A stretch of DNA of 64,000 nucleotides from Candidatus Poribacteria bacterium (GCA_965261435.1 CBDHDL010000008.1:1207987-1271986); one strand, 5' to 3'. Shown: positions 2,770 through 55,190, numbered from the stretch's first letter. Made by a program: numbers and translations. Notes: a model not told the origin generated them from the letters alone.

Positions 2770-5700
2770 CTACTTCAGAATAAGCATCTTCCGCGTCGCA
2801 GTGAAATCACCCGCAGTGAAATTACAAATATAGATACCTGCCGCAACCTGTTCACCAAAAGCGTTCTTACCATCCCAGTACGCAGCACGTCTACGGTTAG
2901 AATAGATACCCGTAGCCTTGTTTCCTAACGCAATCTGTCGGACAACTATACCTCTAACGTTGTAGATAGACAGCGTGACCTCTGCAGGTTTAGACAACTG
3001 ATACGGAATCCACGTTTCAGGATTGAATGGGTTCGGGTAGTTTTGTAGCAATGCGGTTGTATTTGGATTTGCTGGAGTTGGTTGAACAGACGGTGCAGCA
3101 CCTTCTAATTTGGTGACATTGATCGTAACAGATATGCTATCACCCCCACTATTCCCATCATAAACCGTGATCGTGACCAAATAGGAGGTCTTTGATTCAT
3201 AGTCAAGTTCAGTTTTCGTTTGTAATTGACCGTTTGTACTAACAAGACTGAATGAGGATGCATCAGTGCCACTGAGTGTGTAGGTCAATGTATCACTCGT
3301 ATCAGAATCCGTTGCGGAAAAGGGTTCACCGATGTTTTCACCAGCTGTGGTTTTCTCATATACAGAACGCGTCGCGCTATCTCCATCTGCAAATATAGGG
3401 ATATTGTTGTTCAAATTAATGTCGATGGTAATCTGAGGTTTTGATGTCTTTAGACTACGAAGCGGTCCGTAATCAGAAATCGGATTGCCGCTGAGATATA
3501 AACTGTTTAATGAAGTCAAACCTTCAAGTTCGGAAACATCACGGATCTGATTCCTGTTCAGACTCAATTCTATCAGTACTGTGTTATTGTCAAACACATT
3601 CGCTGGAAGTGAACTCAGATTGTTACTTGACATGTAGAGATATTCCAATTGTCTATTATTGTCAAACACATTTGCTGGTAGCGAAGTCAGTTTGTTCCTG
3701 AAAATGAAAAGGTCTGTCAGGTTTGTGTTATTATCAAACACATTTGCAGGTAAATCAGTCAGACTGTTACCGTTGAGTATGAGCTTTGTCAGATTTGTGT
3801 TATTGTCAAACACATTTGCTGGCAAGACGGTCAGTCTGTTTCTCGCGAAAAATAGTTCTATCAAAGCAGTGTTATTATCAAACACCTCTGCGGGTAATGA
3901 AGAAACTTGGTTATTGCTAAAATCTAATAATGTAAGTTTTGTGTTATTGTTGAACACTCCAGTAGATAACGAAGTCAGTTCGTTGTCATGCAGAGTAAGT
4001 CTTCTCAACTCAGTGTTATTGTCGAACACATTCGACGGTAACGAAGTCAGTTTGTTGTTATTCAGATAAAGCCACTTCAGTTCTGTGTTATTGTCAAACA
4101 CATTCGCTGGCAATGCGGTCAGACCGTTGTCGTCCAGGAAAAGTTGTAGCAATTTTGTGTTATTGTCAAACACACCAGTGGGTAGCGAGGTGAGATCGTT
4201 ACTATACAAGTAAAGATCACACAGTTTTGTGTTATTGTCAAACACACCCGGTCGCAATGATTTCAGCTTGTTCTTGTTCAGTGTAAGCTCACGCAGTTTT
4301 GTGTTATTGTCAAACACACCAGCGGGTAACGAGGTGAGATCGTTACTATACAGATTGATCCGTGTCAGTTCTGTGAGATTGGAAAACACATCAGACCGCA
4401 ACCAGGTCAGTCCGCCACCACCAAACGATAGGTTTGTCAGTTTTGTGTTATTATCAAACACACCAGCGGGTAACATTTTAAAGTAACATGCACCCAGTTC
4501 AATGGATCTTAGTTCAGTGTTCTCAGCAAAAACACCTGCGGGTAACGACTTTAGACCGGTGTAGTAAAGGCTAAGATTTCTCAGTCCAGACATACCAGAG
4601 AAATCCCCTACTTTTAATGTGTTCATTTTTTTATTATAAAGACTAAGGTCTGTAATTTGTGCAAGGTGTTCCGGTGTCACATCGTCAGCAGAATCCACAC
4701 CAGCAGCGGCAACGATTGCATCACGTATATACGCTGTACGTTCACTGACAGGTGTAATTTCTATCATGTCAGTGACACTGATAGTGACTGCGATACTATC
4801 ACTTCCACTATTTCCGTCGGTGACAGAGATTCTGATGGAGTAGGAGTTCTGTGTTTCAAAATCAAGAGCAGCGCTTGTCTGCAGCTTGCCCTGTATTCCT
4901 AACAATCCTGAACGATGACGCATCTGTACCACCAAGTGTATATATGAGTATATCTTTGTCTGAATCTGTCGCAGCGATAGGTTCACCGATGTTTTGACCT
5001 GGTGAAGTATTCTCAGCCACTTCGCGTGTTGTGCTGTCACCCTCGGTGAACACAGGTGCGCGGTTCTCGTCTATATCCGTCACATTAATTGTGACTTTGA
5101 TACTATCCTCACCACCATTATTATCAAACACAGCAATCTTGACCGAGTAAGAGTTCTTTTTTTCAAAATCAAGTGGAGATTTCGTAAGCAGCTGACCATT
5201 GCTGCTATTGATTTCAAAAGAAGTTTCATCAGTACCACTGAGACGGTAGGTCAAATCGTCATCGTCTGCATCAGTCGCAGAAACTGCTGCCCCGATTTCT
5301 ACACCCGAGCTAGCATTTTCTGCTATTGATCGCGTCGTGACATCACCTTCAGAAAATTTAGGTGCGCGGTTCTCGTCTACATTAGTTACGTTGATTATCA
5401 TGTCAATCGTATCCTCTAATGCGCCATCAGAAACAGTGATTGTGATTGAGAAGGATTTCTTTGTTTCATAGTCCAAAACAGCTTTGGTTTGCAGTTGTCC
5501 TGAAGTGGTAACGATACTAAATGATGCAGCATCCGGACCACCAAGCGTATATGTCAAAGTATCACCCTCATCTGGGTCAGTTGCGGAGAGTATACCACCG
5601 ATATTGGTTCCCGTTTCAGTGTTTTCAGCGATAAATAAGGTTGTGAGAGTATTCGGTGCAATGATGGGAGCTTCATTGACATCTGTGACACTAATTGTTA

Positions 5701-8700
5701 TCCTAATAGTGTCTGTTTTACTGCCATCTGATACCGTCGCAGTGACACTGTAAGAGGATTTATCTTCGTGATTAAGTGCAGCATCTGTCTTCAACTGTCC
5801 TGTTTTCCTGTCAATACTGAATGCTGCGGCATCCGTACCACTGAGCAGGTATGTAAGTAAGTCATTATCCACATCTGTCGCTGCAATAGGAGTACCGATA
5901 TTTTTATCTTTTGCAGTATTTTCAACAACCGATCGGGTTGTACTTGAGCCTTCAGTGAAAATGGGTGAATTGTTGGATGGTGTTTCGTCAAGATTACTGA
6001 CATTGATTGTTACCGTGATCGTATCTGTGAGGTTTCCATCAGTCACTATGATGGTTACAGAATAGGTAGGATTTTTCTCATAGTCAAGGGATGCTTTTGT
6101 TTTCAATTGCCCAGTCGCATTGTCAATACTAAACGAACTTGCATCAGATCCGGAAAGTGTATAGGTTAAGTTGTTCAAATCTGGATCCGTAGCAGAAACG
6201 GCACTTCCGATATTGCTGTTTACAGGTGCATTCTCAGCGGTCTCGCGTGTTGTGCTTGCACCATCAGAAAACACTGGTGCTTCGTTGACATCAGTTACAT
6301 TTATCGTGACGGAGATGCTATCACTGTCCCCGTTGCTATCGGACACAGTGATTGTCACAGAATAGGATGATTTCGTTTCGTAATCCAGTGCAGCACTTGT
6401 TCGCAACTGTCCAGTCGTACTGTCAATACTAAATGAGGAAGCATCCGTGCCACTCAGACCGTACGTTAATGTATCTCTATCCGGATCTGTAGCAGAAACA
6501 GTAGAACCTATATCTACACCGGAACCTATATTCTCATCAACAGATCGTGTTGCACTATGACCATCAGTGAACTCAGGGGCATTGTTTGTTAAAGTGTTAT
6601 CGGTTAACGGTATGATAACAGTGTCCTCTGTTGTAGCTTGGAGCTCATCTATATTTATGACATTAATTGTAACCGTGATGGTATCTGTGAATGTACCATC
6701 AGAGACAGTGACTGTGACTGCATAAGATGTCTTGGTTTCATAGTCTAACGTGGAACTTGTGCGTAACTGACCGGAACTACTATCAATACTAAATGAGGTA
6801 GCATCGCTCCCACCGATCATATAGGTGAGAACATCATCCTCCTCATCTGTGGCAGACACTGGTGTACCGATGTCTTCACCAAGTCCTATGTTTTCAGGAA
6901 CAGTTCTTGTAGTACTATCTCCATCCGTAAACTTGGGTGCGTTGTTTGTTACCGTGGTTTCGGTCTTCGTTGCATCGCCTTCTGTCGTGGGATCAGTCTG
7001 TTTTAGATCGGTTTCTGTCTTTGCAGTCGCAGCTTCCTCTTTTGTAACTGGGGTCTCAGCTACGTCTGTGATATTGATAGTGACCGCGATGGTATCTGTG
7101 AGGTTGCCATCAGTGACCGTGATTGTCACAAAATAAGAATTATTCCTCTCATAATCTAATGCTGCCCTTGTTTTCAACTGCCCAGATTTGGTGTCAATGG
7201 AGAACACGCTTGCATCTGTGCCACCAAGACTATACGTAAGGGTATTATTATCCGCATCAGTTGCAGCAACGGGTATACCGATGTTTTCTCCTGATTCTGT
7301 ATTCTCCGATACTTTTCGTGTTGTACTATCACCATCAGAGAACTCAGGAGCACTGTTTGTTAAGGTGTTATCGGTTTCCGGTATTATAACAGTGTCCTCC
7401 GTTGTAGCTTGGAGCTCATCTATATCTGTGACATTGATTGTAACCGTGATGGTATCTATGAATGTACCATCAGAGACAGTGACTGTGACTGCATAAGATG
7501 TCTTGGTTTCATAGTCTAACGTGGAACTTGTGCGTAACTGACCGGAACTACTATCAATACTAAATGAGGTAGCATCGCTCCCACTGATCATATAGGTGAG
7601 AACATCATCATCATCCGCATCCGTTGCGACAACAGGTTTGCCGATATTTTCTCTTGCTTCTGTATTCTCGGTAACTTCGCGTGTTGTGCTGTCGCCATCC
7701 ATGAACACCGGGGCGCGGTTTTCGTCTAAATCGTTAACGTTTATCGTCACACTGATCATATCAGTAAGTGTACCATCAGAAACCGTTATCGTCACCGAGT
7801 AGGATGTCTTTGCTTCATAATCCAACGCGGATTTAGTTTTCAATTGTCCCGTTTTGCTATCAATGTCAAACGATGACGCATCTGTACCGGTCAACGTATA
7901 TGTTAGTGAATCGTTATTGTCGTCAGTGGCTGTTATTGCTTCACCGATATTTTCACCAGATGGAGTATTCTCTGCAATAGTGCGTGTAGTAGCAGCATCA
8001 GTGTACACTGGCGCAACATTGATACGACCATGGATTTCAAGAGGGTAACCTTGCGGTTTTACAAGTGTGTACCCACTGTGCATTGAAGGCAAATTCGGTA
8101 AAGCTGCAAAATCTACCGTGACTTCCTCAATCGTATTCTGAGAGCGTAATAATGTGAGTGGTATACTATACATACTACCTTTCGGGATCGTGATGTTATC
8201 AGCATCAAGAAACCCGTTTTTGACGGAGATCTGTAAGACTATATCAAAAGGAGCACCTGTTTGTACTACTGCTCTTATCTGGTTTTCTCCGACCTTTTCT
8301 AAGGCGATTGTAAGCGGTAAAGGTGCAACCGAATTCCCGCTCAAATTCAGTTGATTCAACGATGTCAATCCTTCAAATATCCCAACGGGGAGGCTACTGA
8401 GTTGGTTATTTTGCAGGTTCAACGATCTGAGTGAAAGCATGCCAGCAAAATCAGCACTATTGAGTAATCGGATTTTCTTATTGTTCAAGTCAAGGTTTGT
8501 GATTGTTGCAAGATGGATTTCACTGATATTCCAGCAATCAGTTACCCCTGACACCACAGCGGTAATCGCTTCAATAACTTGGTGAGTGCGGTTGCAGACT
8601 GTTGATCTGGAAAGAACGTAACCGTAATGGTTAGTTGGCACACTCGGTAAAATACCGATATCCACAATTGCTGCGTTCATGACCGTGAAAGATGTACTAT

Positions 8701-10222
8701 TGACGCTGCCTTTTGGTATAGTGACCATAGTCGTGTTACCTGCTCCATCTATTGGTACAACAACATGAAACGGAGCACCTGCGGGTATCACCACACGGTA
8801 TTCATTTGTTGCTACTTGCTGCAAGGAAACAATAAGCGGCATCGGGTCAGTAAGGTTACCTCCTAAGCGTAGTGTTGTGAGTGAGGTGAGTCCTTTAAAG
8901 ATACCTTCGGGCAAACTGCTGAGTAAATTACCATTAAGATTAAGACGCGTCAGTTCAGATAAACCAGAAAAATCACCAGTTTTGAGTTTAGAAATTCCGG
9001 TGTTTCGTAGATTGAGCTGTGTAATTGTAGTAAGTTGCGATGTGGTCACATCTGCGGGATAATCAACATTTGGCAACACCTGCACAATCACATCTCGCAC
9101 GTGTGGTGTACGTTCATTGACGGGGACTATCACTGAATCCGTTCGGATATCATTAACGTTAACGATGCCTATGATAACTGTAATTGTGTCTGTAAGGATT
9201 CCATCAGAAGCAGTGATTGTCACAGAATAGACACGTTTCGTTTCATAGTCTAATGCTGCTTTTGTTTGCAACTGCCCTGTCGTGCTATCAATATTAAACG
9301 AATCGGCATTTGTCCCACTCAAGATGTATGTTATTTCATCGTTGTTCGGATCTGTTGCAACAACTGCTGCACCGATATTGACATCTGCTGCCGAATTTTC
9401 TGCAACTGTTCGGAGGGTGATTGTTCCATCAGCAAAAATAGGGGCACTGTTTCCGTTTATTTTAGACATTATCGGTACTGGGACGATCTGTTCATCAGGA
9501 ACAACTGTCGTTATCCCTATATTCTCAGTAGCAACAGCAACGATAACTTCAAGTGGTAGTAAATCATTTTTTGATAACACATAACCGTAATGGTTAGACG
9601 GCAAATTCGGTAATGTACCGATGTCCATAGTAACAGAATCGGTTGTGTTTGCAGTGCGGGTTACCGTTAGCGGGAGGCTTTCAATGCTGCCCTTTTCAAT
9701 AGTGATAGTGGATGCATCGTCTGATATGCTGCCGTGGGTCACACTGATTGGTAACACAATAGAAAATGGAGCACCTGTTGGTACCACTGCTTTGAATTGA
9801 TTGTCCGTAATCTTTTCAAGTAAAACTGTGATAGGTAACGGATCAACTGTGTTGTTTCCCAATCGGAGTGTTGTTAAGGCTGTTAAACCTAAGAAAATGC
9901 CATTTGGAAGACTATTTAGCTGATTGCCATAAAGATTGAGATGTGTCAGTCCTGACAACCCGGAAAAATCACCAGATTTTAGGTTATTAATTTCTTTTGA
10001 TCGTAGGTTGAGGTCTGTAATTGAAGCGAGGTGTCCTTTAGTTACATCGCTCGCATCGTTTATGTTCGGTATGGCATTAACAATTGCATCGCGCACTGTG
10101 GAAGTTCGTTCGTCTAACGCGGTGAACTCGGCATAACTTGATACTGTCCCAAAAATTATCAAATAAGTTAATAAAATCGATACGATAGCTTTATGATTTA
10201 AGTAGATTAAATATAGTTTCAT
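2770..10222 (-). CDS. Giant secreted LRR-cadherin protein E (~2483 aa once the 1-nt insertion at ~4883-4890 is removed); ~12 cadherin domains, ~16 24-aa LRRs near the C-terminus, T9SS-A/FlgD-Ig-like CTD
   Basis: ORFs 4862..10222 and 2770..5040 join inside one cadherin domain (...SFRIVRNTGQ|LQTSAALDFE...). (7453-1)/3 is an integer. Signal peptide ending GTVSSYA; CTD NYPNPFNPETWIPYQL. Confidence 0.85.
3480..4640 (-). repeat. 72-bp (24-aa) LRR-coding repeats of gene E
   Basis: GTGTTATT(G/A)TCAAACAC recurs every 72 nt and encodes LP.xVFDNNTxLxxLxLxxNxL. Confidence 0.9.
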
Positions 10223-10587
10223 ATAAATTTCCCTGCTGTTTTACAGTTTGTTTTTCGAATCAATACCAAATGCAAGAAAGGTCATACGCTTTTTTGTTCA
10301 CGTATGTTTAGCATTGATATAATAAGTCATTATATTATAAGTTGTATTACGCAATTAAAATTGACCTATTATGGCTATTTGTTTAAACAGCAAGTTGTCG
10401 TAGAATGAGAAATCTCGAAGAACTTACTGTTTTAGGAGAAATTGAGAGTAAACACTGTTCTTACATAAGAGACAAGTGTAAATTAAGAATATCCTGCGAT
10501 TCGTGGAAATCCTGGTTATGACGTACTATTTAGTCTGCGATTCCGACTAAAGAAGCGGATATTTCTTGTTGGAGAGTGTCAACACAC

Positions 10588-24800: not shown

Positions 24801-27800
24801 TCTCCAATATTTGCCTCAGTGTCAGTGTTTTCTTGAACGGAGCGCGTAATGTCATCACTTGCAAATTCAGGCGCGTTGTTTATCTTTGTTTCGTCAACAT
24901 CGGTAACATTAGTCGTAACGGAAATACTATCGCTTCCGCCATTCCCATCGTTGACGGTGATAATCACGGAATATGATGACTTCCCTTCATAGTCCAAAAA
25001 AGCACTCGTTCGCAACTGACCCGTTGTGCTATTGATGCTAAACGACGACGCATCTATCCCACCGAGTATATAGGTTAATTTGTCCTCGTCTACATCCGTT
25101 GCCGATACAGCATCACCGATGTCTACACCAGAACCAGTATTTTCCGCGACTTCGCGTGTTGTGCTATCACCCTCCGTGAACACCGGGTCATTGTTTGTTG
25201 GGGGTGCCTCGGATTCTCTTGTGGTAGCCGTCTCATCTTCTGTGGGTTTCTCTTCTACATCTGTGATTCTAATAGTGACATTAATTGTATCTTTGAGTTT
25301 GCCATCAGACACGGTGATCGTAACGGAATATGTGGATTTGCTTTCAAAATCCAAAGCAGTACTTGTTTTTAACTGTCCAGATTCGGTATCAAGGGTGAAC
25401 ACGCTTGCATCTGTGCCACCAAGGCTATAGGTAAGGGTATCGTCATCTGCATCCGTCGCGACAACGGGTATGCCGATATTTTCTCCTGCTGCTGTATTTT
25501 CCGTGACTTCGCGTGTTGTGCTATCACCCTCCGTGAACACCGGGTCATTGTTTGTTGGGGGTGCCTCGGATTCTCTTGTGGTAGCCGTCTCATCTTCTGT
25601 GGGTTTCTCTTCTACATCTGTGATTCCAATAGTGACGTTAATTGTATCTTTGAGTTTGCCATCAGACACGGTGATCGTAACGAAATATGTGGATTTGCTT
25701 TCAAAATCCAAAGCAGTACTTGTTTTTAACTGTCCAGATTCGGTATCAAGGGTGAACACGTTTGCATCTGTGCCACCAAGGCTATAGGTAAGGGGATCGT
25801 CATCTGCATCCGTCGCGACAACGGGTATGCCGATATTTTCTCCTGCTGCTGTATTCTCCGCGACTTCGCGTGTTGTGCTGTCACCATCCGTGAACACCGG
25901 GGCGCGGTTTTCGTCTACATCTATCACATTTATTGTCACGTTGATTGTATCAGTAAGCGTGCCGTCAGAAACCGTTATCATCACCGAATAGGTTTGCTTT
26001 GTTTCATAATCTAACGTAGATTTAGTTTTCAATTGTCCCGTTTTGCTATCAATGTCAAACGATGTTGCATCTGTGCCGCTCAATGTATACGTTAATGAAT
26101 CGTTATTTGCATCAGTGGCTCCTATGACTTCACCGATATTTTTATCAGATGGAGTATTCTCTGCAATAGTGCGTGTCGCAGCAGTTTCCGTGAACACTGG
26201 AGCAACATTGATGCGACTATAGATTTCAAAGGGGAAACCTTGCGGTTTTACAAGCGTGTACCCACTGTGCATTGAAGGCAGACGCGGTAAAGCTGCAAAA
26301 TCTACCGTGACTGCCTCCGTCGTATTGGTAGTGCGTAATAAGGGGAGTGAAGTGCTAAACACACTACCTATTGGGATTGTGATGTTATTAGCATCAAGAA
26401 ACCCATTTTCGACGGAGATCTGTAAGACTATATTAAAGGGGGCACCTGTTGGTACGACTGCTCTTATACGGTTTTCACCGACTTTCTCTATAGTGACCGT
26501 AAGCGGCAAGGGTGAAACCGTATTCCCGCTCAAGTTCAATTGATTCAATCTTGTCAGTCCTTTAAAGACACCATCAGGGAGGCTGCTAAGTTGGTTATTC
26601 TGCAGGTCAAGTGATGTGAGAGTCAACATTCCAGCGAAATCGTCACCGCTTAAAGATGAGATGCCTTTATCGCTGAGATTGAGTGTCGTGATTGTTGCAA
26701 GATGAAGTTCACTTAAATTACGACAATCAGTGATACCTGGCACTGCATTTGAAATCGCTTCTGTTACTTGAAGGGTCCGGTTGCATACTGTTGATTTGGA
26801 TAATACATACCCGAAGTGATTAGCAGGTAGATTTGGCAAAACTCCAATACCTACAGATGTTGATGCTGTAAAGGGTATACTGTAGACATGCCCTTTTGGG
26901 ATAGTTATCATTGTTGTCGGATCTGCACCATCTATTGGTAATTCAACATCAAATGGAGCACCAGTTGATATTACTGCTCTGTATTCATTAGCATCAATCT
27001 GCTGCAAAGAGACAATAATCGGTAGCGGATCAACAAAGTTGCCACTTATTCGGAGTGTCGTGAGTGAAGTTAAGCCTGAAAAGATACTATAAGGCAAACT
27101 ACTTAGCATGTTGCCATATAAGTTTAGATTGACAAGTCCGCTCAAACCGGAAAAATCACCAGATTTCAGTGCGGTTATACCAGCAGAACGCAGATTAAGA
27201 CTCGTGATAGCAGCAAGGTGAGTATCGGTAACATTCGCAGCATCCACAATATTCGGTACTGCATTGACAATTGCATCCCGCACTTGTGGTGTGCGTTCAC
27301 TCACAGGAAGAAATACAGAGACTAAATCAGTATCAGATACATCAATAATACTGACTATGACTGAGATGGAATCTGTCAAGCTACCATCAGATGCCATGAT
27401 TGTCACGACATAAATCTTGTTCATTTCATAGTCTAATGCTGCTTTTGTCTTTAACTGTCCTGATGTACTATCAATATCAAATGATGATGCATCCGTGCCG
27501 TTTATTGTATAGGTTAGTGTGTCGTCATTTGCATCTGTTGCAGCCACTGGTGTGCCGATATTCGTACCAGCTGTTGTATTCTCAGCGATGAAACGGATCG
27601 CAATAGACCCATCGTTAAAAGTTGGTGGGTTGTTTTCAGGTTCGTCCGGTGGTGTTGGGGTTTCTGGTGGGGTGAGTGTCTCTAATTCAGATTGTGTGTC
27701 ATCAGGATCGGCCGGTGTTTCACTAATAGTGTTGAGCACTTCAATTGGCAGCGTGTCGGATTTAGAAAGGATATAACCGTAGTGATGACTCGGTAATCCC

Positions 27801-37271: not shown

Positions 37272-37282
37272 TACTAATTCTA

Positions 37283-46200: not shown

Positions 46201-49200
46201 AGTTGTTACTAATAGTGAGACTTGTCAGCGTTGTCAAACCGCTAAACACGGCTGCAGGGAGGTTTGACAAAGAGTTGCCATCAAGATTGATGTTTGTCAA
46301 TGCGGTGAAACCGTCAAAATCGTTAGCTGTTAACGCAGTAATTGATACATCACTTAAATCAAGTGTGGTCATTGCGGCGAGGTGTGCATCGGTAACATCT
46401 GCAGCATCATTTACACCCTCAATTGCATCTAAAATCGCGTCTTGGACTTGCTGTGTACGATCCCCAATTGGAGTGGATTCAAATACGTCTGTAACGTTTA
46501 TCGTGATAGTGATACTATCAGTACCACTTTTGCCATCCGAAACGGTAATGCTGACCGAATAGGATTTCTTTGTCTCATAGTCCAGTGCTGCTTTTGTCCG
46601 AAGCTGACCAGTGGTGCTGTTGATGCTAAACGATGCCATATCCGTGCCACCAAGTGTGTAGGTCAACTCATCATTATCCAAATCAGTTGCAGATACTGCA
46701 TCACCGATATCCACGCCTGTTCCTGTATTCTCAGCAACTTCGCGTGTTGTGCTTGCACCATCTGTGAACTCAGGTACATTGTTCTCATCTACATCTGTCA
46801 CATTGATGGTAACAGAGATAGTGTCCTCACCTTCATTCCCATCCGAAACGGTGATAGTAACCGAATAGGATTTCTTTCCCTCATAGTCGAGCGGAGCTTT
46901 CGTCCGAATTTGACCAGTGGTGCTGTTGATGCTAAACGATGCTGCATCCGTGCCACTAAGTCTGTATGTCAATTCATCATTATCCAAATCAGTTGCAGAT
47001 ACTGCATCGCCGATATCCACGCCGGTTCCTGTATCCTCAGCAACTTCGCGCGTTGTGCTTGCCCCATCAGTGAACACAGGTGGCCTATTATCATCTAAAT
47101 CTGTCACATTGATGGTAACAGTGATGGTGTCCTCACCATCATTGTCATCCGAAACGGTGATTATGACTGTGTAAACTTTTTTCCCTTCATAATCAAGCGC
47201 ATCTTTGGTTTGCAGCTGACCCGAAGTGCTAACAATGCCGAAAGAATCGGCATCCGTTCCACCCAGCGTATAAGTGAGCGTGTCGTTATTAATATCCGTG
47301 GCACCGACTGGATCACCGATGTTAGTCCCTGTTCCTGTGTTCTCAGCGACTTCTCGTGTCGTGGTATCGCCATCAGTGAACTCAGGTGCAGTGTTTTCAT
47401 TTCCGCTTAAATCTTTCACATTGATTGTAACCGTGATGGTGTCAGTGCCACCCTTCTCATCCGAGACAGTGATAGAAACTGTGTAAGTTGGTTTCGACTC
47501 ATAATCAAGCGCAGCTTTGCTTTGCAGCTGCCCGGTAGTGCTGACGATACTAAAGGATGCCGCATCCGCGCCACTGAGCGTATAGGTTAGTGTGTCGCTG
47601 CTATCATCATCTGTGGCAGCGACCGGGTCACCGATGTCCCACCCGGCTGCCGTATTCTCAACAACTTCCCGTGTCGTGCTTGCACCCTCAGTAAATTCAG
47701 GTAGTGCGTTAACAGCAGGGATAACTTCGAGTGGAAGACCTGTACTCGCCTTGACAAGTTGATAACCAGAATGTGAATTTGGACGGGTCGGTAATGGTGT
47801 ACCGATATCCACCGTGACCGCAGCTTTTGTGCCAGCGGTTCGGGTCACTGTCAGCGTCGTGGTGCTTTCCACGCTTCCTTTAGGGATCGTTATGGTTGTC
47901 GCACTCCCGCTGATGCTACCATGGGTCACACTCACAGGTAAAGCGATTTCAAAAGGTGCACCAGTGTGGACTTTAGCTTTGAACTGTCCCTCTGCCACCT
48001 TCTCCAATGAAACAGTCAACAAGAGTGGATCCGTGGAGTTGCCACTCAGAAGAAGCGTCGTCAGTGAAGTCAAACCGTCAAATACGTCTGCGGGAAGATT
48101 TGTCAGAGAATTGTTACTAATAGTGAGACTTGTCAGCGTTGTCAAACCGCTAAACACGGCTGCAGGGAGGTTTGACAAAGAGTTGCCATCAAGATTGATG
48201 TTTTTCAATGCGGTGAAACCGTCAAAATCGTTAGCTGTTAACGCAGTAATTGATACATCACTTAAATCAAGTGCGGTCATTGCAGCGAGGTGTGTATCGG
48301 TAACATCTGCAGCATCATCTACACCGTCAATTGCATCTAAAATCGCATCTTGGACTTGCTGTGTACGACTTCCAATTGGAGTGGATTCAAGTACGTCTGT
48401 AACGTTTATAGTGACAGTGATACTATCAGTTCCATTATTGCCATCCGAAACGGTGATGATGACCGAATAGGAAGACTTTTCCTCATGGTTGAGCGCAGCT
48501 TTCGTCCGAAGCTGACCTGTGGTGCTGTTGATGCTAAACAATGCCATATCCGTACCACCAAGTGTGTAGGTCAACTCATCATTATCCAAATCAGTTGCAG
48601 ATACTGCATCGCCGATATCCACGCCGGTTCCTGTATTCTCAGCAACTTCGCGTGTTGTGCTTGCACCATCTGTGAACTCGGGATCCCTGTTCTCATCTAC
48701 ATCCGTGACGTTGATTGTAATGTCAATCGTATCTGTTAGTGTGCCATCAGACACGGTAATTGTTACGGAGTAGGATTTTTTTCCTTCATAATCCAAAGCA
48801 GCTTTTGTTTTTAGCTGCCCAGATGTGCTATCAATGTCGAACGATGCAGCATCCGTGCCACCGAGTGTATATGTCAATGTATCACCATCGTCCTGATCGG
48901 TTGCAGAGAGTGTTGAGCCGATATTGACATTTGATGCGGTGTTCTCTGCTACGGATAGGGTTTTCTCCGCGTCAGATGCGATGACGGGTGCCTCATTGAC
49001 ATCCGTGACGTTGATTGTCACTGAAATTGTATCGGTATCACTTCCATCGGACACGGTGACGGTAACCTCGTAAGCGTCTTTAGTTTCGTGATCAAGGGCA
49101 GCACTCGTTTTGAGCTGCCCTGTTGTGCTATCAATTGCAAATGAAGCCCCATCTGTGCCACTGAGCAGAAACGCGAGTGTGTTATTATCTTCGTCTGTAG

Positions 49201-52200: not shown

Positions 52201-55018
52201 CATCCACGTCTGTGACATTGATTGTTACGTTGATCTTATCAGTGAGGTTGCCATCAGTCACGGTGATAGTCACAAAATAGGAGGATTTGCTTTCGTAGTC
52301 TAATGCTGCACTTGTTTTCAACTGCCCAGAGTCGGTATCAATTGCGAACGCGCTTGCATTTGTGCCACCAAGACCATAAGTAAGGTTATCGTTATCCGCA
52401 TCCGTTGCAGCAACAGGTTGACCGATATTTTTTCCTGCTTCTGTATTCTCTGCGACTTCGCGTGTCGTGCTCTCTCCATCCGTGAACATTGGGGTGCGAT
52501 TTTCGTCTACATCTATCACATTTAATGTCACGTTAATTGTATCAGTAAGTGTGCCATCAGAAACCGTTATCATCACAGAGTAGGATTTCTCTGTTTCATA
52601 ATCCAACGCTGCTTTTGTTATTAATTGTCCTGTTTTGCTATTAATGTCAAATGAAGTTGCATCTGTACCGCTCAATGTAAACGTAAGTGTATCGTTATTT
52701 TCGTCAGTTGCTCCTATAGCTTCACCGATATTTTCTCCGGCAGGAGTGTTCTCTAAAATGTTGAACGTTTTACTTGCACCATCAGAGAAAACCGGAGCTG
52801 AGTTGAGTGCTTTAACAATTTCAAGCGGGACAGTGCCAGTTATGGAAAGAGCATAGCCAGTATGTGTTGCGGGTAACGTAGGAAACACACCAAATTCTAC
52901 GGTGACCGCAGCTTTTGTTCCATCGGGACGGGTAACCGTAGCAGCTTGGCTCTTAACATGACCTTGTGGAATTGAAAGAGTGATTGTGTTTTTGACAACG
53001 TTCCCAACCTTAACGGAAACAGGTAAGACGATATCAGAAGGTGCACCAGTTGGTATCATCGCTCTGATCTGATTGGTCCCAACTCTTTCAAGTGATACCA
53101 ATATAGGGAAAGGATCAACTGTGTTTCCACCCAATTTGAGTGTTGTCAACGTTGTAAATCCTTCAAATATACCATCAGGGAGACTACTGAGTTTATTATT
53201 ACTTAGATCAAGTATTGTAAGTGAAAGAATGCCTTTGAAATCATCACGACTTAGCGCAGCAATCCCCTTGTTGCTTAAGTCAAGGTTGGTAATCAATGCA
53301 AGTTGGACTTCGCTGACATCACTGCAATTGACTACACCCGGCACAGCAGCAGCAATTGCTTCGGTGACTTCCGTTGTCCTATTACACACAGCGGATTTAG
53401 AAAGCGTATATCCGAAATGGTTAACAGGCGATTTCGGTAAATTGCCAATACTCACGTTTACGTCGTTCATCACTGTGAAAGAGGCACTATTGACGTTTCC
53501 TGTTGATATGGTCACCATCGTTGTACTACCAGCACTTTTAATCGGCAAGACAATATCAAAAGGTGCACCGGTAGGTATTACTGCTTGATATTGATTTGAC
53601 GAAATCTGCTGAAGTGAAACGATAATTGGAATTGGATCGACAGAATTACCCCCTAACCGTATTGAGGTAAGTGAGGTAAGTCCTTCAAATATACCATCGG
53701 GCAATCTGCTTAGCATATTTCCGTATAAGTTCAAACTGGCAAGTGCGGTCAGACCGAAGAAATCACCAGATTTCAGTTCGGTTATACCAGCAGAACGAAG
53801 ATTAAGATTTGTTATGGCAGCAAGGTTTGCCTCCGTTACATTGGCTGCCGAGGAAACATTCGGAACTGCGTTAACAATTGCATCACGCACTTGCGGTGTA
53901 CGTTCGCTCACAGGAAGTGATACTGAGACCAAATCAGTATCTGCAACATCAATGACACTGATGATGACTGAGATGGTATCGGTCAAGGTACCATCGGATG
54001 CAGTGATCTTCACTGCATATAAACGTTTGGCTTCATAATCCAATGCTGCTTTTGTCTTTAACTGTCCTGTTGCGCTATCAATACTAAATGATGCTGCATC
54101 TTTGCCACGAAGTGTATAGGTTAATATGTCGTCATTTGCATCATTTGCGGCAATTGCTGTCCCGATATTCGTCCCTGCTGTTGTATTCTCAGTGATGAAA
54201 CGGATCGTCATTGACCCATCGTTAAAAGTCGGTGCTTTGTTTTCCGGTACATCTGGTGCTGTCGTAGTTTCTTGTGCTGTCGTAGTTTCTGGTTCAGATC
54301 GGGTATCAGCGGTATCGTCAGGCGTTTCACTAATACTATTGATCACTTCAATCGGCAGCGCGTCCGATTTAGAAAGAATATAACCGTAGTGTTTTTTTGG
54401 CAAACTCGGTAAAGATCCGATATTTACAGAGACGGCATCAGTTGTTCCTATAGTGCGAGTGATCGTTAATAGGTTACTATCTATGCTGCCTTGTGCCACT
54501 GTCAAAGTCGTTGCATCTCCAGATATAATGGCGTTTATCGGATTGATTGGCAAAACAAGATCAAACGGTGCGCCAGTCGGTATGACCGCTTTCAACTGAT
54601 TGCTGCCTACTTTTTCAAGCGAAACAGTAATTGGCAACGGATTAACTGTGTTCCGACCTAACCTTAACGTTGTCAATGCAGTCAAACCTGAAAATATACC
54701 ATCAGGAAGGCTGCTCAGTTGGTTTCCATACAGATTGAGATTTGTCAATCCTGTCATACCAGAAAAATCACCTGCTTTGAGTGATGTAATACCTTTAGTT
54801 CGCAAGTTCAGGCTCGTAATTTTTGCAAGATGTTCTTCAGTTATATCGCTTGCATCGTCTACACCTGCGACAGTGGCGACAATTGCATCACGCACTTCTG
54901 CTGTACGTTTATTCACAAGTGTAACATCTGCGAAACTTACCATATTGGAGATAAAACATAATTTCAAAACAAAATAAATAAACAAAATGTACTTTCTATT
55001 AGCGTAATTCATGCACAA
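37283..55018 (-). CDS. Giant secreted LRR-cadherin protein A (5911 aa, intact; start probably ATG 55012); ~31 cadherin domains, six internal LRR-Ig modules, two 22-aa LRR blocks, CTD
   Basis: Single 17.7-kb ORF. AGGAGG at ~55022-55027 (minus). Cadherin motifs AEN / DxDxD / LDYE / DVDENxxPxF; C-terminal NYPNPFNPETWIPYQL...RKMVILK. Confidence 0.93.
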   Translation of the reverse strand: MCMNYANRKYILFIYFVLKLCFISNMVSFADVTLVNKRTAEVRDAIVATVAGVDDASDITEEHLAKITSLNLRTKGITSLKAGDFSGMTGLTNLNLYGNQLSSLPDGIFSGLTALTTLRLGRNTVNPLPITVSLEKVGSNQLKAVIPTGAPFDLVLPINPINAIISGDATTLTVAQGSIDSNLLTITRTIGTTDAVSVNIGSLPSLPKKHYGYILSKSDALPIEVINSISETPDDTADTRSEPETTTAQETTTAPDVPENKAPTFNDGSMTIRFITENTTAGTNIGTAIAANDANDDILTYTLRGKDAASFSIDSATGQLKTKAALDYEAKRLYAVKITASDGTLTDTISVIISVIDVADTDLVSVSLPVSERTPQVRDAIVNAVPNVSSAANVTEANLAAITNLNLRSAGITELKSGDFFGLTALASLNLYGNMLSRLPDGIFEGLTSLTSIRLGGNSVDPIPIIVSLQQISSNQYQAVIPTGAPFDIVLPIKSAGSTTMVTISTGNVNSASFTVMNDVNVSIGNLPKSPVNHFGYTLSKSAVCNRTTEVTEAIAAAVPGVVNCSDVSEVQLALITNLDLSNKGIAALSRDDFKGILSLTILDLSNNKLSSLPDGIFEGFTTLTTLKLGGNTVDPFPILVSLERVGTNQIRAMIPTGAPSDIVLPVSVKVGNVVKNTITLSIPQGHVKSQAATVTRPDGTKAAVTVEFGVFPTLPATHTGYALSITGTVPLEIVKALNSAPVFSDGASKTFNILENTPAGENIGEAIGATDENNDTLTFTLSGTDATSFDINSKTGQLITKAALDYETEKSYSVMITVSDGTLTDTINVTLNVIDVDENRTPMFTDGESTTREVAENTEAGKNIGQPVAATDADNDNLTYGLGGTNASAFAIDTDSGQLKTSAALDYESKSSYFVTITVTDGNLTDKINVTINVTDVDEKPAADGTVTTREPDDATTNNAPEFTDGNSTTRSVDENTGTGVDIGEAVSATDADEDILTYTLGGTDSSSFSINSTTGQLHTDAPLDYETKSSYSVTITVADGNGGSDKISVTVNVIDVYEDPANNLPVFKDGDSTTREVAENTGTGIDIGDAVSAIDQDADRLTYSLRGTDASSFGIDSTSGQLRTEVSLDYETKPSYSVTITVSDGNGGSDSISVTINVTDVEENLATKSEENNAPEFIDGNNTTRSITENSAANTNIGTPVSATDSDKNQTLTYTLGGTDAELFSINSTNGQLQTNAPLDFETKSSYSVTITVSDGHSGSDSISVTINVIDVNENPTNNPPVFTEGDSTTRSVYENTGSGLDIGDAVSATDLDEHDLTYSLSGTDASSFGIDSTSGQLRTEVSLDYEAKSSYSVTITVSDGNGGSDSISVTIIVIDVFEDPVNNPPVFTEGDSTTREVAEDTGTGIDIGDAVSAIDEDADTLTYSLGGTDASSFGIDSTSGQLRTEVSLDYDAKSSYSVTITVLDGNGGSDSISVTINIIDVEENLATRSDENSAPVFIDGNSTTRSIAENAAANTSIGTPVSATDVDKDQTLTYTLGGTDAESFSINSTNGQLQTKAPLDFETKSTYSVTITVSDGNDGSDSISVTIYVTEVNENPANNPPMFTEGESTTRSVVENTSSGLDIGDAVSATDLDEDDLTYLLSGTDASSFGIDSTSGQLRTNAPLDYETKPTYSVIITVSDGNGGNDSITVTINVTNVNEIRSNSAPVFTEGNSTTRSVDENTSTGVNIGDSVSATDLDDDALTYTLGGTDAASFSIETSSGQLKTSTALNYELKPSYSVTVTVSDGTDTDIISVTINVANINEAPTFSDGESTTRSIAENVAANINIGSAVSATDPEEEVLTYILGGTDAASFSIDSTTGQLKTKATLDYESKNTFSVNITVSDGTLSDTITVTINVTDLDEAPSNIAPEFTEGESTTREVDENTAADADIGDPITATDEDNNTLAFLLSGTDGASFAIDSTTGQLKTSAALDHETKDAYEVTVTVSDGSDTDTISVTINVTDVNEAPVIASDAEKTLSVAENTASNVNIGSTLSATDQDDGDTLTYTLGGTDAASFDIDSTSGQLKTKAALDYEGKKSYSVTITVSDGTLTDTIDITINVTDVDENRDPEFTDGASTTREVAENTGTGVDIGDAVSATDLDNDELTYTLGGTDMALFSINSTTGQLRTKAALNHEEKSSYSVIITVSDGNNGTDSITVTINVTDVLESTPIGSRTQQVQDAILDAIDGVDDAADVTDTHLAAMTALDLSDVSITALTANDFDGFTALKNINLDGNSLSNLPAAVFSGLTTLTSLTISNNSLTNLPADVFDGLTSLTTLLLSGNSTDPLLLTVSLEKVAEGQFKAKVHTGAPFEIALPVSVTHGSISGSATTITIPKGSVESTTTLTVTRTAGTKAAVTVDIGTPLPTRPNSHSGYQLVKASTGLPLEVIPAVNALPEFTEGASTTREVVENTAAGWDIGDPVAATDDDSSDTLTYTLSGADAASFSIVSTTGQLQSKAALDYESKPTYTVSITVSDEKGGTDTITVTINVKDLSGNENTAPEFTDGDTTTREVAENTGTGTNIGDPVGATDINNDTLTYTLGGTDADSFGIVSTSGQLQTKDALDYEGKKVYTVIITVSDDNDGEDTITVTINVTDLDDNRPPVFTDGASTTREVAEDTGTGVDIGDAVSATDLDNDELTYRLSGTDAASFSINSTTGQIRTKAPLDYEGKKSYSVTITVSDGNEGEDTISVTINVTDVDENNVPEFTDGASTTREVAENTGTGVDIGDAVSATDLDNDELTYTLGGTDMASFSINSTTGQLRTKAALDYETKKSYSVSITVSDGKSGTDSITITINVTDVFESTPIGDRTQQVQDAILDAIEGVNDAADVTDAHLAAMTTLDLSDVSITALTANDFDGFTALTNINLDGNSLSNLPAAVFSGLTTLTSLTISNNSLTNLPADVFDGLTSLATLLLSGNSTDPLLLTVSLEKVAEGQFKAKVHTGAPFEMAIPVSATNGSISGDATTITIPKGSVESTTTLTVTRTAGTKAAVTVDIGTPLPTRPNSHSGYQLVKASTGLPLEVIPAVNALPEFTEGASTTREVVENTAAGWDIGDPVAATDDDSSDTLTYTLSGADAASFSIVSTTGQLQSKAALDYESKPTYTVSITVSDEKGGTDTITVTINVKDLSGNENTAPEFTDGDTTTREVAENTGTGTNIGDPVGATDINNDTLTYTLGGTDADSFGIVSTSGQLQTKDALDYEGKKVYTVIITVSDDNDGEDTITVTINVTDLDDNRPPVFTDGASTTREVAEDTGTGVDIGDAVSATDLDNDELTYRLSGTDAASFSINSTTGQIRTKAPLDYEGKKSYSVTITVSDGNEGEDTISVTINVTDVDENNVPEFTDGASTTREVAENTGTGVDIGDAVSATDLDNDELTYTLGGTDMASFSINSTTGQLRTKAALDYETKKSYSVSITVSDGKSGTDSITITINVTDVFESTPIGDRTQQVQDAILDAIEGVNDAADVTDAHLAAMTELDLSDKSITSLTANDFDGFTALTNINLADNSLASLPAAVFSGLTTLTSLTISNNSLTSLPAAVFDGLTSLTTLLLSGNSTDPLLLTVSLEKVAEGQFKAKVHTGAPFAMAIPVSATNGSISGGATAITIPKGSVESTTTLTVTRTSGTTAAVTVDMGTPLPTRPSSHSGYQLAKAITGLPLEVIPADNALPVFTEGESTTREVDENTAANTNIGTPVNATDTDTNDTLTYTLGGTDRASFSIVSTTGQLQTKAALDYESKKSYSVSITVSDGNSGTDSITVTINVTDVFESTPIGSRTQQVQDAILAAIDGVADAADVTDAHLAEMTALDLTEASITSLTANDFDGFTALTNIDLDGNSLASLPADVFSGLTTLTRLTFGKNSLANIPADVFSGLTNLTRLSLEDNLLTSLPDEVFVGLTSLTHLHLDNNSTNPLLLTVSLEKVAEGQFKAKVHTGAPFAMAIPVSATNGSISGGATTITIPQGSVESTTTLTVTRTAGTRAAVTVDIGTPLPSRPSAHSGYQLAKASTGLPLEVIASDNALPEFTEGASTTREVAENTGTGVDIGDAVSATDLDNDELTYTLGDTDRASFSINSTTGQLRTKAELDYESKKSYSVTITVSDGNSGTDSITITINVTDVFESTPIASRTQQVQDAILDAIEGVEDAADVTDAHLAEMTALDLSDKSITGLTANDFDGFTALTNINLDGNSLASLPAAVFSGLTTLTNLTISNNSLTNLPAAVFDGLTSLTTLLLSGNSTDPLLLTVSLEKVAEGQFKAKVHTGAPFEMAIPVSATNGSISGGATTITIPKGSVESTTTLTVTRTAGTTAAVTVDIGTPLPTRPTSHSGYQLAKASTGLPLEVIPADNALPEFTEGASTTREVAENTAASTNIGTPISATDDDSGDTLTYTLGGTDHASFSFVSTTGQLRTKAELDYESKKSYSVTITVSDGNSGTDSITVTINVTDVFESTPIGSRTQQVQDAILDAIEGVEDAADVTDAHLAAMTALDLSDKSITGLTANDFDGFTALTNIDLDGNSLSSLPAAVFSGLTTLTSLTISNNSLTSLPAAVFDGLTSLTTLLLSGNSTDPLLLTVSLEKVAEGQFKAKVHTGAPFAMAIPVSATNGSISGNATTITIPKGSVESTTTLTVTRTTGTTAAVTVDIGTPLPTRPSSHSGYQLAKASTGLPLEVIASDNALPVFTEGESTTREVVENTAANTNIGTPVSATDDDKGDTLTYTLSGTDADSFSIVSTTGQLQTKAELIYDEKTSYTVIITVSDGNNGEDTITVTINVTEEIATITPVNERTLPIAKALMFAVGVTTLEAVTEELLARITTLDVDQLPENETPLTTMKEGDFDGLTALTKLDLEENFFTDITPIEDLTTLQELILLNNNVSDLTPLRNMTSLTNLHLKNNNVSDISPLENLTAMKDLNLDLNSVSDISPLENMTSMINLYMHSNAISDISPLENMTGLKKLYMRNNNISDISPLENMTALQILSMSNNLVRDVSAVENMTALKTLTVGGNPISDYGPLRTLKENNPTVSIDIDIDNNPPVFADGDSTTRSIAENTPANTNIGTPVNATDDDGDTLTYTLGGTDADSFSIVSTSGQLQTKAVLNHEGKGSYTVTVSVSDGNDGLDLITVTINVTNVAETENNNPTFTEGESTTREVAENTAANTNIGTPVSATDADGDSLTYTLGGTDAASFSIVSTTGQLQTKAALDYDEKTSYSIIITVAESNGGTDTINVTINVTEVVENTMVSVNNAPTFTEGDSATRSIEEHTPANTNIGTPVNATDADTDDTLTYTLSGTDVDSFGIVSTTGQLQTKAALNYDTKTTYTVTITVSDGNTGTDTITVTINVTDATEVPVSDRTQAIREAIVAAISDVNSADDVTYEHLATITRLNLISESITSLQAGDFHGLTALTWLNLANNRISDISALGGLTALTTLDLSNNNNISDISALEGLTALTTLNLRKNSLSDISALDGLTALTNLTVSENSLSDISALDGLTALTSLDLRKNSISDISALDGLTALTSLNLRENSLSDISDLDGLTALTNLDLLKNSISDISALEDLTALTTLDLGQNSIVDISALEDLTQLTTLYLYLNRIVDISALENLTQLTKLNVFGNSITDISALSEFTSLTSLTLSENPLSDYTQIFPIVINNPDIEINLFLTNRSPVFTAGEDTTVEVAENTATNTNFGQAIGARDSDAPPNGQPPLTYYIRGTDADSFGVRIYTGTLYTVAALDFDTKSTYEVILFVLDDLGAYDKIDVTINVTQVASSPPSAQPSPDITALLSNYPNPFNPETWIPYQLAKPSDVSITIYDIRGNVVRHLDLGHQKTGFYTSRRHAAHWDGKNQLGEKVAAGVYFYQLQAVTTSPLRKMVILK
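44461..48280 (-). repeat. Near-perfect 1908-bp tandem duplication in gene A (4 cadherins + 1 LRR-Ig module = 636 aa)
   Basis: Identical antisense ORFs at 44534/46442, 45009/46917 and 45366/47274, all offset by exactly 1908 nt. Confidence 0.9.
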
Positions 55019-55161
55019 TGTCCTCCTATATTTTCAACTAATCAAATCTTCCTCTGTCTTTTCTTGTTATGGCTTTTAAGCTTTAAATAACTCAAATAAT
55101 CCATTATAAATCAATTATTATGTTATATATTAAAGTTATAATCAATATGTGTATATATGGA

Positions 55162-55190
55162 ATTATAATTTCTTAGCATATATTTGTCAA
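55162..55190 (-). promoter_or_regulatory. Consensus sigma70 promoter upstream of the giant-gene array
   Basis: The minus strand reads TTGACA (55190-55185), a 17-nt spacer, then TATAAT (55167-55162), in a very AT-rich region ~150 nt upstream of gene A. Confidence 0.8.

Follow-up and report, generated by a model that had tools for sequence, protein, structure and literature searches.

A tandem array of five giant cadherin and LRR proteins, probably surface-exposed, in a Candidatus Poribacteria genome

Sponge symbionts carry many 'eukaryote-like' genes encoding LRR and cadherin domains. In the RTX adhesins LapA, MpIBP and SiiE a rod of tandem calcium-binding beta-sandwich domains holds binding modules off the cell, and the T9SS LRR proteins of the Bacteroidota, such as BspA of Tannerella forsythia and InlJ of Porphyromonas gingivalis, reportedly combine LRRs with Ig-like domains and a C-terminal sorting domain. 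For the Poribacteria themselves, the available text of a 2014 report (PMC3909097) describes eukaryote-like proteins with LRR and cadherin domains and TIGR04183 tails.

The locus considered here lies in a window of 64,000 nucleotides from Candidatus Poribacteria bacterium (GCA_965261435.1 CBDHDL010000008.1:1207987-1271986), for which an initial annotation had proposed five co-oriented paralogs encoding giant proteins with a constant head, a cadherin stalk, variable LRRs and the same CTD. Co-orientation and a shared plan were borne out: g1 to g5 all lie on the minus strand, and each encodes a putative signal peptide, a three-module head containing one cadherin, a stalk, LRR blocks near the C-terminus and a CTD (Table 1). 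The array is real, but only g5 is a continuous open reading frame, g1 to g4 being cut by single extra bases. The Pfam families matched were Cadherin, LRR_8, LRR_4, LRR_5 and FlgD_ig.

Table 1. Coordinates of the features discussed, counted from the first letter of the window; lengths of g1 to g4 are with the extra bases omitted
Feature	Position	Strand	Frames and extra bases	Description
g1	10222->2770	-	2 frames in assembly (ORFs 4862-10222, 2770-5040); extra base 4887	2483 aa, no internal stop; head, 12 cadherins, one 24-residue LRR block, one cadherin, CTD
g2	18805->10824	-	3 frames; extra bases 14334, 13727	2659 aa; head module 1 internally deleted, 16 cadherins, 24-residue LRR block, Ig-like domain, CTD
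g3	28411->18859	-	2 frames; extra base 20906	3183 aa; 17 cadherins, three 24-residue LRR blocks, CTD
g4	37185->28514	-	3 frames; extra bases 32567, 32263	2889 aa; 15 cadherins, one additional head-type module, 22-residue LRR block, one cadherin, CTD
g5	55018->37283	-	uninterrupted ORF	5911 aa; 31 cadherins, six additional cap-LRR-Ig modules within stalk, two 22-residue LRR blocks, CTD
g5 head	52799..55018	-		740 aa; putative signal peptide, module 1, one cadherin, modules 2 and 3
g1 break site	4882..4892	-		GGGCAAGCTGC where intact repeats read GGGCAGCTGC (Gly-Gln-Leu codons, cadherin repeat)
g3 head tract	26144..27017	-		874 nt identical to 34915-35788 in g4; gene-conversion tract
g2 tract	15085-15277			second tract, identical to 33015-33207 in g4
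CTD g1	2779..3039	-		TIGR04183, 36.4 bits
CTD g2	10833-11093	-		TIGR04183, 24.7 bits
CTD g3	18868-19128	-		TIGR04183, 25.1 bits
CTD g4	28523-28783	-		TIGR04183, 29.8 bits
CTD g5	37292-37552	-		TIGR04183, 32.3 bits
P0001	55773..59180	+		1135-aa gene, divergent from g5

HMMs built from the window found the head in one order in every gene, a cap-LRR-Ig module, one cadherin and then two further cap-LRR-Ig modules. The three-module head that had been called the same in all five paralogs is the same in architecture but not in sequence, with 56-66% protein identity to the g5 head, and only HMM positions 1-30 and 68-95 are left of module 1 in g2. Module 1 of the g5 head (54341-54916) is predicted to comprise two helices (the cap), three short LRR strands and a beta-sandwich; the AlphaFold model of the module reached pLDDT 92.5 and pTM 0.84, the other four of the five models being not confident at ~60. 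Its best PDB matches were Listeria internalins, which covered the cap and LRR only: InlH (Z 8.6, 112 aligned), InlC2 (Z 8.6) and InlB (Z 8.5) with VIA, for which ~8.6 is near the noise level for LRR-type repeats, and InlF with Foldseek (E 3e-4, 85 columns, rmsd 2.0). Judged by eye, the N-termini of g1 to g5 are basic, then hydrophobic, then carry A-x-A-like sites (SYA/E, GIA/E, SSA/H, SRA/D and SFA/D), and they look like Sec signal peptides.

The stalk lengths first counted by hand, 12, 16, 17, 15 and 31 cadherins, were reproduced exactly with window-built HMMs once split hits were joined, and the core cadherins do for the most part follow the same order from paralog to paralog, interrupted in places by tandem expansions. 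Matches to PF00028 Cadherin, at 381.5 and 312.3 bits, exceed the cut-off of 28.8. In the consensus, which was drawn from 83 full repeats out of 97 hits, E16-N17, D32xD34xD36, L-D66-Y-E68, D81-G and D96xxE99 are kept at 93-100%; we take these conserved acidic columns (E/N, D) to be the Ca-binding motifs of cadherins. An internal tandem duplication with an offset of 1908 nt and ~96% identity occupies 43830-48720 within g5.

The distal LRR blocks differ between paralogs in number and class, as had been proposed, with 24-residue units in g1 (13 motif hits), g2 (9) and g3 (7+3+9) and 22-residue units in g4 (12) and g5 (8+9). The related proposal of a clustered family with exchange between copies is supported by long identical tracts, the 874-nt perfect run of g3 and g4 sitting inside 87% identity and a 193-nt run of g2 and g4 inside 77% identity. 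The paralogs evolve by tandem repeat duplication and gene conversion between copies, and stalk length and LRR content also vary across the arrays of related genomes. Rapid diversification of the VLR kind is not supported by g1, the sole gene compared: contigs from three further samples, belonging to three studies, carry it almost unchanged, and fast strain-level change is therefore unsupported as far as g1 goes. Pieces of g1 in run X3 had 0 differing letters over 497-1307 nt, those in X4 were mostly likewise, and in X5 15 letters differed in 737.

All six extra bases that break g1 to g4 lie in GCWGC read as GCWWGC. The 11-mer at the g1 break recurs at the breaks of g2 and g4, and the g3 break carries the reverse-complement form AAGCTTGCC; ten copies of the 11-mer occur here versus 0-4 in relatives, none of them within the relatives' arrays. 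An unbiased 7-mer scan of the genome, in which contexts were ranked by frame-fusing single-base deletions, placed GCAAGC/GCTTGC variants among the top eight (1-3.5% versus a background of 0.12%), and GGCAAGCT was frame-fusing at 11/81 sites, with 0/180, 1/129, 1/54, 0/48 and 0/262 for five control 8-mers. We are fairly confident that the breaks are methylation-linked long-read consensus errors at GCWGC. Nanopore errors at methylated GCWGC have been published, and in the parts of these reports available to us they are mainly mismatches, not insertions (PMC10687267; bioRxiv 10.1101/2024.07.12.603236). If the breaks are errors, all five genes would be intact in nature; and since the assembly holds dozens of GCWGC insertions, broken genes in it should not be taken for pseudogenes without checking.

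Were the breaks real, four of the five genes would be recent pseudogenes in this strain and the array would be decaying. The read-level comparison, which covers one of the six break sites (g1, scored at 4886), gives this reading some footing, as run X1, which probably represents the source sample, reads as the window does (0/13.8 without the base), and the extra base is therefore present in the X1 data and in its contigs; the head of g2 has a true in-frame deletion besides. We nevertheless regard decay as improbable. The base is absent in three other samples that are otherwise near-identical, namely X3 (36.2/36.2), X4 (4.4/4.4) and X5 (6.9/6.9), no second lesion is seen in the 2483-3183 codons that stand open without a stop once the six bases are omitted, and related closed genomes have intact genes. 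Moreover, many unrelated genes genome-wide are broken by the same motif, among them pfkB (in the window), an EF-G paralog, an ABC-type ATPase and a SprA-like gene. Runs X4 and X1 belong to one study, yet X4 is without the extra base, for which real polymorphism would also account.

It is also conceivable, although very improbable, that the insertions are both real and functional, GCWGC scars or switches turning paralogs off so that this population expresses g5 alone from a phase-variable repertoire; one route would be, for example, the filling in of a one-base overhang after a GC^WGC-type nuclease cut. The base that is doubled is precisely the W at the centre of a palindrome of the restriction-site type, 5/13 GGGCAGCTGC sites in the window carry it, and g1 would be switched 'on' in three samples but 'off' in the sample that is probably the source. 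Against this, the insertions are not specific to adhesin genes, the break sites have none of the homopolymers, short tandem repeat tracts or invertible elements of known switches, and some 60 or more such events are implausible in a lineage that, apart from them, matches X3 letter for letter across kilobases; for this very motif there is, in addition, the sequencing-error precedent. If the insertions were real, the array would be an on/off adhesin repertoire resting on a mutational mechanism that is not known from phase variation, in which the 1135-aa primase-polymerase-like neighbour, P0001, might take part.

With consensus error as the preferred account of the breaks, there remains the order of the genes themselves. 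The region is very rich in repeats, containing tandem units of 303-357 nt that are as much as 97% alike as well as the 1.9-kb duplication, and none of the contigs from the public runs reaches across the whole of g1, as might be expected if the array were a chimera assembled from collapsed or mis-joined repeats. Such a chimera is nonetheless extremely unlikely: X1 contigs tile window positions 1500-10932 with zero differing letters, the frames remain open across thousands of codons, and closed single-contig relatives have the same array layout, including the divergent 1135-aa neighbour.

The array belongs to a large family whose members have already been sequenced, and it is one of several such tandem clusters. 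Among 7998 scored candidates the head matched at least 1803 database proteins of 1378-4386 aa (E<=1e-10), one of which is the NCBI entry 'cadherin domain-containing protein [Candidatus Poribacteria bacterium]'. Of 24 genomes from the same genus, 19 had it at E<=1e-20 and 12 at E<1e-50, and in the closed genomes G003 and G020 of that genus, genes that follow this plan, intact and 3100-4273 aa long, stand in arrays. The initial statement that no description of this architecture was known was too strong, given these homologs and the LRR, cadherin and TIGR04183 proteins already on record from 2014; a literature search that took in the available text of PMC3909097 found no published account of the head-stalk-LRR plan or of the arrays. 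P0001 looks cytoplasmic and has a weak C-terminal HTH match, with no Pfam family above cut-off; its family is multi-copy and often adjoins such arrays in several genomes.

All five tails scored above the TIGR04183 cut-off of 23 bits in a genome-wide profile search, as T9SS type A CTDs do, and FlgD_ig matches, at 32.7 and 29.1 bits, exceeded theirs of 27. The CTD is the same throughout in architecture but not in sequence (51-90% identical). TIGR04183 matches number 90 in the genome, in proteins of many kinds. Candidate parts of an export apparatus comprise three PorU-like proteins (E 2e-86 to 6e-73, 246-290 bits, below the cut-off of 420), a PorV-like protein (100 bits, below 250) and collinear SprA-like matches (best 70 bits, below 200); GldM and GldN had no match in the genome, and the same models matched no control genome either. 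Kamke et al. 2014 report no Por structural genes in Poribacteria, in the text available (PMC3909097). The initial annotation had called the variable LRR blocks distal. For proteins that lose an N-terminal signal and end in a CTD of the T9SS type, however, the C-terminus would be cell-proximal; if the proteins are anchored by the CTD, as in the T9SS of the Bacteroidota, the conserved head would be distal, at varying distances, and the variable LRR blocks would lie near the cell.

Taken as a whole, the locus probably represents, in a sponge-associated Candidatus Poribacteria, an array of giant surface repeat proteins, likely used in attachment, whose breaks are errors. Each protein would leave the cytoplasm by the Sec signal peptide seen by eye and cross the outer membrane with its TIGR04183-type CTD through a divergent T9SS-like apparatus; by analogy with the Bacteroidota, the CTD would probably be cleaved and the protein tethered at its C-terminus. 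The cadherin rod, presumably stiffened by calcium in seawater, would project outward with the conserved triple internalin-like LRR head at its tip and the gene-specific LRR blocks near its base, LRR modules in g5 also lying along the rod. The five paralogs would therefore present LRR surfaces that are related without being the same, carried on rods that vary greatly in length.

The proteins are likely to attach the bacterium either to the sponge, at its cells or matrix, or to other bacteria. It is possible, though rather doubtful, that no host recognition is involved and that the proteins serve aggregation between bacteria or biofilm formation, or help the cell to feed by catching particles or polysaccharides. 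Cadherin-type and LRR domains have a wide variety of ligands, the CTD proteins of this genome are diverse, and Robbins et al. 2021, in the part available, discuss cadherin and fibronectin genes of sponge MAGs in terms of host-tissue attachment or biofilm (PMC8163846); but the internalin-like head and the concentration of the family in one genus fit host contact equally well. Under either role, LRR and cadherin domains are organised in one Poribacteria genus into a defined protein plan, in arrays that exchange sequence, and the head and LRR blocks are concrete, expressible modules for binding tests with sponge cells and matrix.

The closest described proteins are those of Kamke 2014, probably from the same phylum, which likewise combine LRR and cadherin domains with TIGR04183 tails and, by prediction, with signal peptides or membrane helices, canonical Por machinery being found in neither case; that report, in the text available, counts domains per genome, without the three-module head, the rod, the LRR blocks before the CTD, the arrays or gene conversion (PMC3909097). 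The Listeria internalins (InlA, InlB, InlC, InlF and InlH) have a helical cap and LRR followed by a beta-sandwich, as is predicted for the modelled head module, of which they are the best structural matches, and the distal blocks of g4 and g5 have 22-residue LRR units as internalins do. They differ in that the head modules of the array have only ~3-5 LRR units, which repeat every 24 residues, the sequences are 18-32% identical over 85-112 residues, and the array proteins belong to a host with an outer membrane and end in TIGR04183 domains, with no LPXTG or GW anchor among the Pfam matches. The BspA-type family LRR_5 matches g1 and g2; BspA and InlJ are, however, far smaller, are not known to have a cadherin rod, a conserved N-terminal head or an arrangement in arrays, and belong to another phylum with a complete T9SS. 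A long calcium-type rod holding modules away from the cell is shared with the RTX adhesins, which use type I secretion, an N-terminal anchor and a binding region at the C-terminal tip; the polarity of the array proteins is probably the reverse, and their rod consists of true cadherin-family domains (PF00028). The VLRs of jawless vertebrates also present LRR surfaces, and a hagfish VLR was among the structural matches (Z 8.2). The array shows no sign of somatic or rapid assembly of the VLR kind, g1 recurring almost unchanged between samples, and its diversity is instead that of germline paralogs shaped by duplication and gene conversion.

The array consists of five consecutive, co-oriented genes (g1 to g5; coordinates of these and other features are collected in the table) that encode giant proteins built to one plan. 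Pfam searches returned many cadherin domains (381 and 312 bits, cut-off 28.8), together with LRR_8, LRR_4 and LRR_5 matches and FlgD_ig or Por_Secre_tail at the tail, and in a whole-genome search all five tails passed the curated TIGR04183 cut-off of 23 bits (24.7-36.4 bits). Four HMMs made from the window sequence, representing the cadherin repeat, the helical cap plus short LRR, the beta-sandwich that follows and the tail, were placed on all three minus-strand frames. This mapping gave the same head order in all five genes, [cap-LRR-Ig] cadherin [cap-LRR-Ig][cap-LRR-Ig], after which come a run of cadherins, the LRR blocks and the tail. When split hits were joined the numbers of cadherins were 12, 16, 17, 15 and 31 in g1 to g5, identical to the counts in the initial annotation. 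Best-match mapping revealed that approximately the first ten cadherins are collinear among the paralogs, with local tandem expansions. The LRR blocks ahead of the tail fall into two classes, with 24-residue units in g1, g2 and g3 and 22-residue units in g4 and g5; the stalk of g5 contains six additional head-type modules and the first head module of g2 has an internal deletion. E16-N17, DxDxD, LDYE, DG and DxxE, which we take to be the calcium-binding motifs of cadherins, were kept at 93-100% in 83 full repeats. The array has no second copy at >=94% identity on the other contigs of the genome. Between window positions 10000 and 29000 there were 25 promoter-like sites vs. 41.8 expected and 12 terminator-like sites vs. 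13.7. The element between g1 and g2 matches its own genome 266 times by BLAST, its contig depth is very high in each of the four sequencing runs compared (866-1082 in X1, the probable source sample, and X3), and it probably represents a REP- or MITE-like repeat.

Locations of features in the window and of related loci (C8, contig containing the window; C21, another contig of the same genome, G000; G003, G007 and G020, related genomes)
Feature	Location	Strand	Remarks
HTH_3 / metallo-beta-lactamase-fold ORF	window 3-815		DNA-binding domain fusion, upstream of two peptide-permease genes
g1-g5	window 2770-55018	minus	five-gene array
Frame breaks in g1-g4	window 4887, 13727, 14334, 20906, 32263, 32567		single extra bases
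Repeat element	window 10591-10682		~90 nt, between g1 and g2
Words of GGTAGAGCGAAGCGAAAC type	window 55290-55330, 55598-55640		two, in 750-nt spacer between g5 and 1135-aa gene; flanks partly complementary
1135-aa gene	window 55773-59180	plus	divergent from g5
Other loci of 1135-aa family	G000 C21:1240760; G003:C1:784416 and 5421427; G007:C1:2917333 and 4584533; G020:C1:781009		
pfkB-family sugar kinase	window 59560-60186		broken at 60177
PorU-like proteins	C21:1313685-1318136, C21:895772-900898, C21:3333305-3336550		1747-2548 aa
Other apparent +1 frameshifts	C21:1073442, C21:513619, C21:1364830, C8:878821-881892		GCWGC read as GCWWGC

Sixteen head-type modules of the window were aligned as input for AlphaFold, which yielded one confident model (pLDDT 92.5, pTM 0.84), the remaining four models being at about 60. 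The predicted module combines two helices with three short parallel strands and a beta-sandwich. The top Foldseek match was Listeria InlF (E 3e-4, 85 columns, rmsd 2.0), with further internalins and VLR-based repebodies ranked below it. When 48,161 chains were searched independently of Foldseek, InlH (Z 8.6), InlC2 (Z 8.6) and InlB (Z 8.5) came out on top, with a hagfish VLR next (Z 8.2). The beta-sandwich by itself matched the C-terminal domains of GH2 glycosidases (Z about 7). With match scores this modest, the head module appears to be internalin-like in plan and not a member of the internalin family.

The observation of a five-gene array was sound, but it had passed over the fact that only g5 (5911 aa) is a single open frame, g1 to g4 being split into 2, 3, 2 and 3 frames. 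The DNA reads as one surplus base at each of six places, and with these six bases omitted g1 to g4 read for 2483, 2659, 3183 and 2889 codons with no stop. Five of the six sites are GGGCAAGCTGC where intact repeats have GGGCAGCTGC, coding for Gly-Gln-Leu, and the sixth, in g3, is AAGCTTGCC, the same change on the opposite strand and in a different codon of the repeat. What all six sites share is therefore a DNA motif, GCWGC becoming GCWWGC (W is A or T), and its presence on either strand disfavours ribosomal frameshifting as the explanation. The 11-mer GGGCAAGCTGC, common to g1, g2 and g4, has 10 copies in 6.63 Mb, nine of which lie at the Gly-Gln-Leu codon site of cadherin repeats at three loci. 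The genome was then scanned for all positions where removal of one base fuses two open frames, each of at least 450 nt. The top eight 7-mers enriched at such positions were all GCAAGC/GCTTGC variants (1-3.5% vs. a background of 0.12%), and GGCAAGCT was frame-fusing at 11 of 81 sites, whereas five control 8-mers gave 0/180, 1/129, 1/54, 0/48 and 0/262 and the un-inserted GGCAGCT 1/596. Across the whole genome 79 of 5370 strand-counted GCWWGC sites were flagged, which is an upper bound since several are probably true gene junctions, e.g. TIR-TPR beside TaqI_C.

Unrelated genes are also broken at the motif, namely the pfkB-family kinase, an EF-G paralog, an ABC-type ATPase and a SprA-like gene. 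In the kinase gene, whose Pfam match spans positions 3-209 of 302, the frame ends after 208 aa at GGCAAGCTGC, where the extra-base motif of the giant genes recurs; omission of the base gives a fused 942-nt frame. EF-G is not decisive as proof of a broken essential gene, one of its three copies being broken and two intact. Apparent frameshifts of this kind number dozens in the genome and include another giant-adhesin cluster. In five relatives with many such cadherin genes the 11-mer has 0-4 copies, none within arrays, and the effect is therefore specific to the present assembly or strain.

Part of window 1500-11000 is contained in six public runs from four studies, none of them listed as RNA, and four of these (X1, X3, X4 and X5) were compared, a check that covers one of the six break sites (g1). 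The extra letter at 4886 was absent in X3 (36.2/36.2), X4 (4.4/4.4) and X5 (6.9/6.9), so that three other samples have g1 in frame. Exact-pattern scans of metagenome contigs beside the g3 and g1 break sites gave 0 matches each. Two reports describe consensus errors, mostly mismatches, that Nanopore assemblies show at a small share of methylated GCWGC sites (PMC10687267; bioRxiv 10.1101/2024.07.12.603236). Sequencing or assembly error is the probable origin of the breaks in g1 to g4, although X1 agrees with the window at the g1 site (letter absent in 0/13.8). It is unlikely that they are real recent lesions, and that they act as a functional switch is very improbable. The GCWWGC breaks provide a useful caution about this assembly, in which genes that look broken or decaying may be intact.

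Sliding identity among the paralogs was strongly mosaic. An identical tract of 874 bases is shared by g3 and g4, the rest of their alignment being 87% identical, and one of 193 bases lies within 77% identity between g2 and g4, with simple run-length estimates of about 1e-48 and 1e-18, respectively. Constraint does not account for these tracts, since over the same columns the other paralog pairs reach only about 60% identity; gene conversion explains both, and g5 was lengthened through a 1.9-kb internal duplication. Pieces of g1 in X3 were identical over 497-1307 bases and X5 was about 2% different in one piece. Joints reported in the g1 runs are no evidence of variants, since their sides are short (under 30) or they also occur in X1, and with the X3 pieces identical fast diversification is therefore unsupported for g1. 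What survives of the proposed variable-receptor or adhesin repertoire is a clustered, recombining family, which is not new and, for g1, is not seen to vary quickly.

The family is large. Among 7998 candidates scored, 1803 proteins of 1378-4386 aa match the g3 head at E<=1e-10, the best 120 being mostly 55-63% identical over nearly the whole head, and one match is titled 'cadherin domain-containing protein [Candidatus Poribacteria bacterium]'. Of 24 same-genus genomes, 19 carry the head at E<=1e-20 and 12 at E<1e-50; elsewhere in the order, 4 of 16 genomes from other families have it. At least 15 genes of the genome that contains the window carry the head, and they lie in several clusters. A search of genome contigs with the g5 head gave 37 pattern matches, 0 confirmed. 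Two closed genomes, G003 and G020, possess arrays of four to five co-oriented genes of the same plan with intact frames of 3100-4273 aa, in which cadherin numbers and LRR blocks vary. The G003 array ends at a divergently oriented homolog of the 1135-aa gene, as in the window; dppC lies away from such arrays in all five relatives tested and a syntenic locus between these two genes, as originally envisaged, is absent as such. The 1135-aa protein had no Pfam match above cut-off and no NCBIfam, PHROG or PDB sequence match, the only lead being primase-polymerase clusters among its language-model neighbours, which are mostly from Poribacteria. With 4-10 matches per genome at about 50% identity, these proteins make up a multi-copy family; they are cytoplasmic-looking and have a weak C-terminal HTH match. 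Of 28 loci in five genomes, about 7 have a copy lying divergently within 4 kb of the first array gene.

The available text of Kamke et al. 2014 (PMC3909097) records TIGR04183 tails in Poribacteria, with no Por structural genes found. In the present genome there are 90 TIGR04183 matches, three large PorU-like proteins (E 2e-86 to 6e-73), one PorV-like protein (100 bits) and collinear weak SprA-like matches across about 4 kb (best 70 bits), all of these PorU-, PorV- and SprA-like scores being under curated cut-offs. GldM and GldN had no match in the genome, and their models matched no control genome either. Each PorU-like protein has a PorU-like peptidase region and its own TIGR04183 tail. The three are candidate sortases for the 90 proteins with this C-terminal tail, in a phylum said to be without Por machinery, and on these sequence matches a divergent T9SS-like export route is plausible. 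If it holds, the tail end would sit beside the cell with the N-terminal head as the far tip, and the polarity implied by a 'variable distal LRR' is probably reversed. A cadherin domain is about 4.5 nm long and at that length the rods of g1 to g5 would span roughly 55 to 140 nm.

No published account of the head-stalk-LRR plan or of such arrays was found in the available text of the literature, in which supplementary tables may list such genes. The parts available of Kamke 2014 (PMC3909097) and Robbins 2021 (PMC8163846) report at the level of domains, and those of a 2026 study describe a cadherin / FG-GAP eukaryote-like protein tested among other single ELPs (PMC13747020). The suggestion that the architecture is new does not stand beside the 1803 head matches in databases and the domain-level reports in print, the family being already known. 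The array adds one more example, a well-resolved one, to a known class of symbiont surface proteins.
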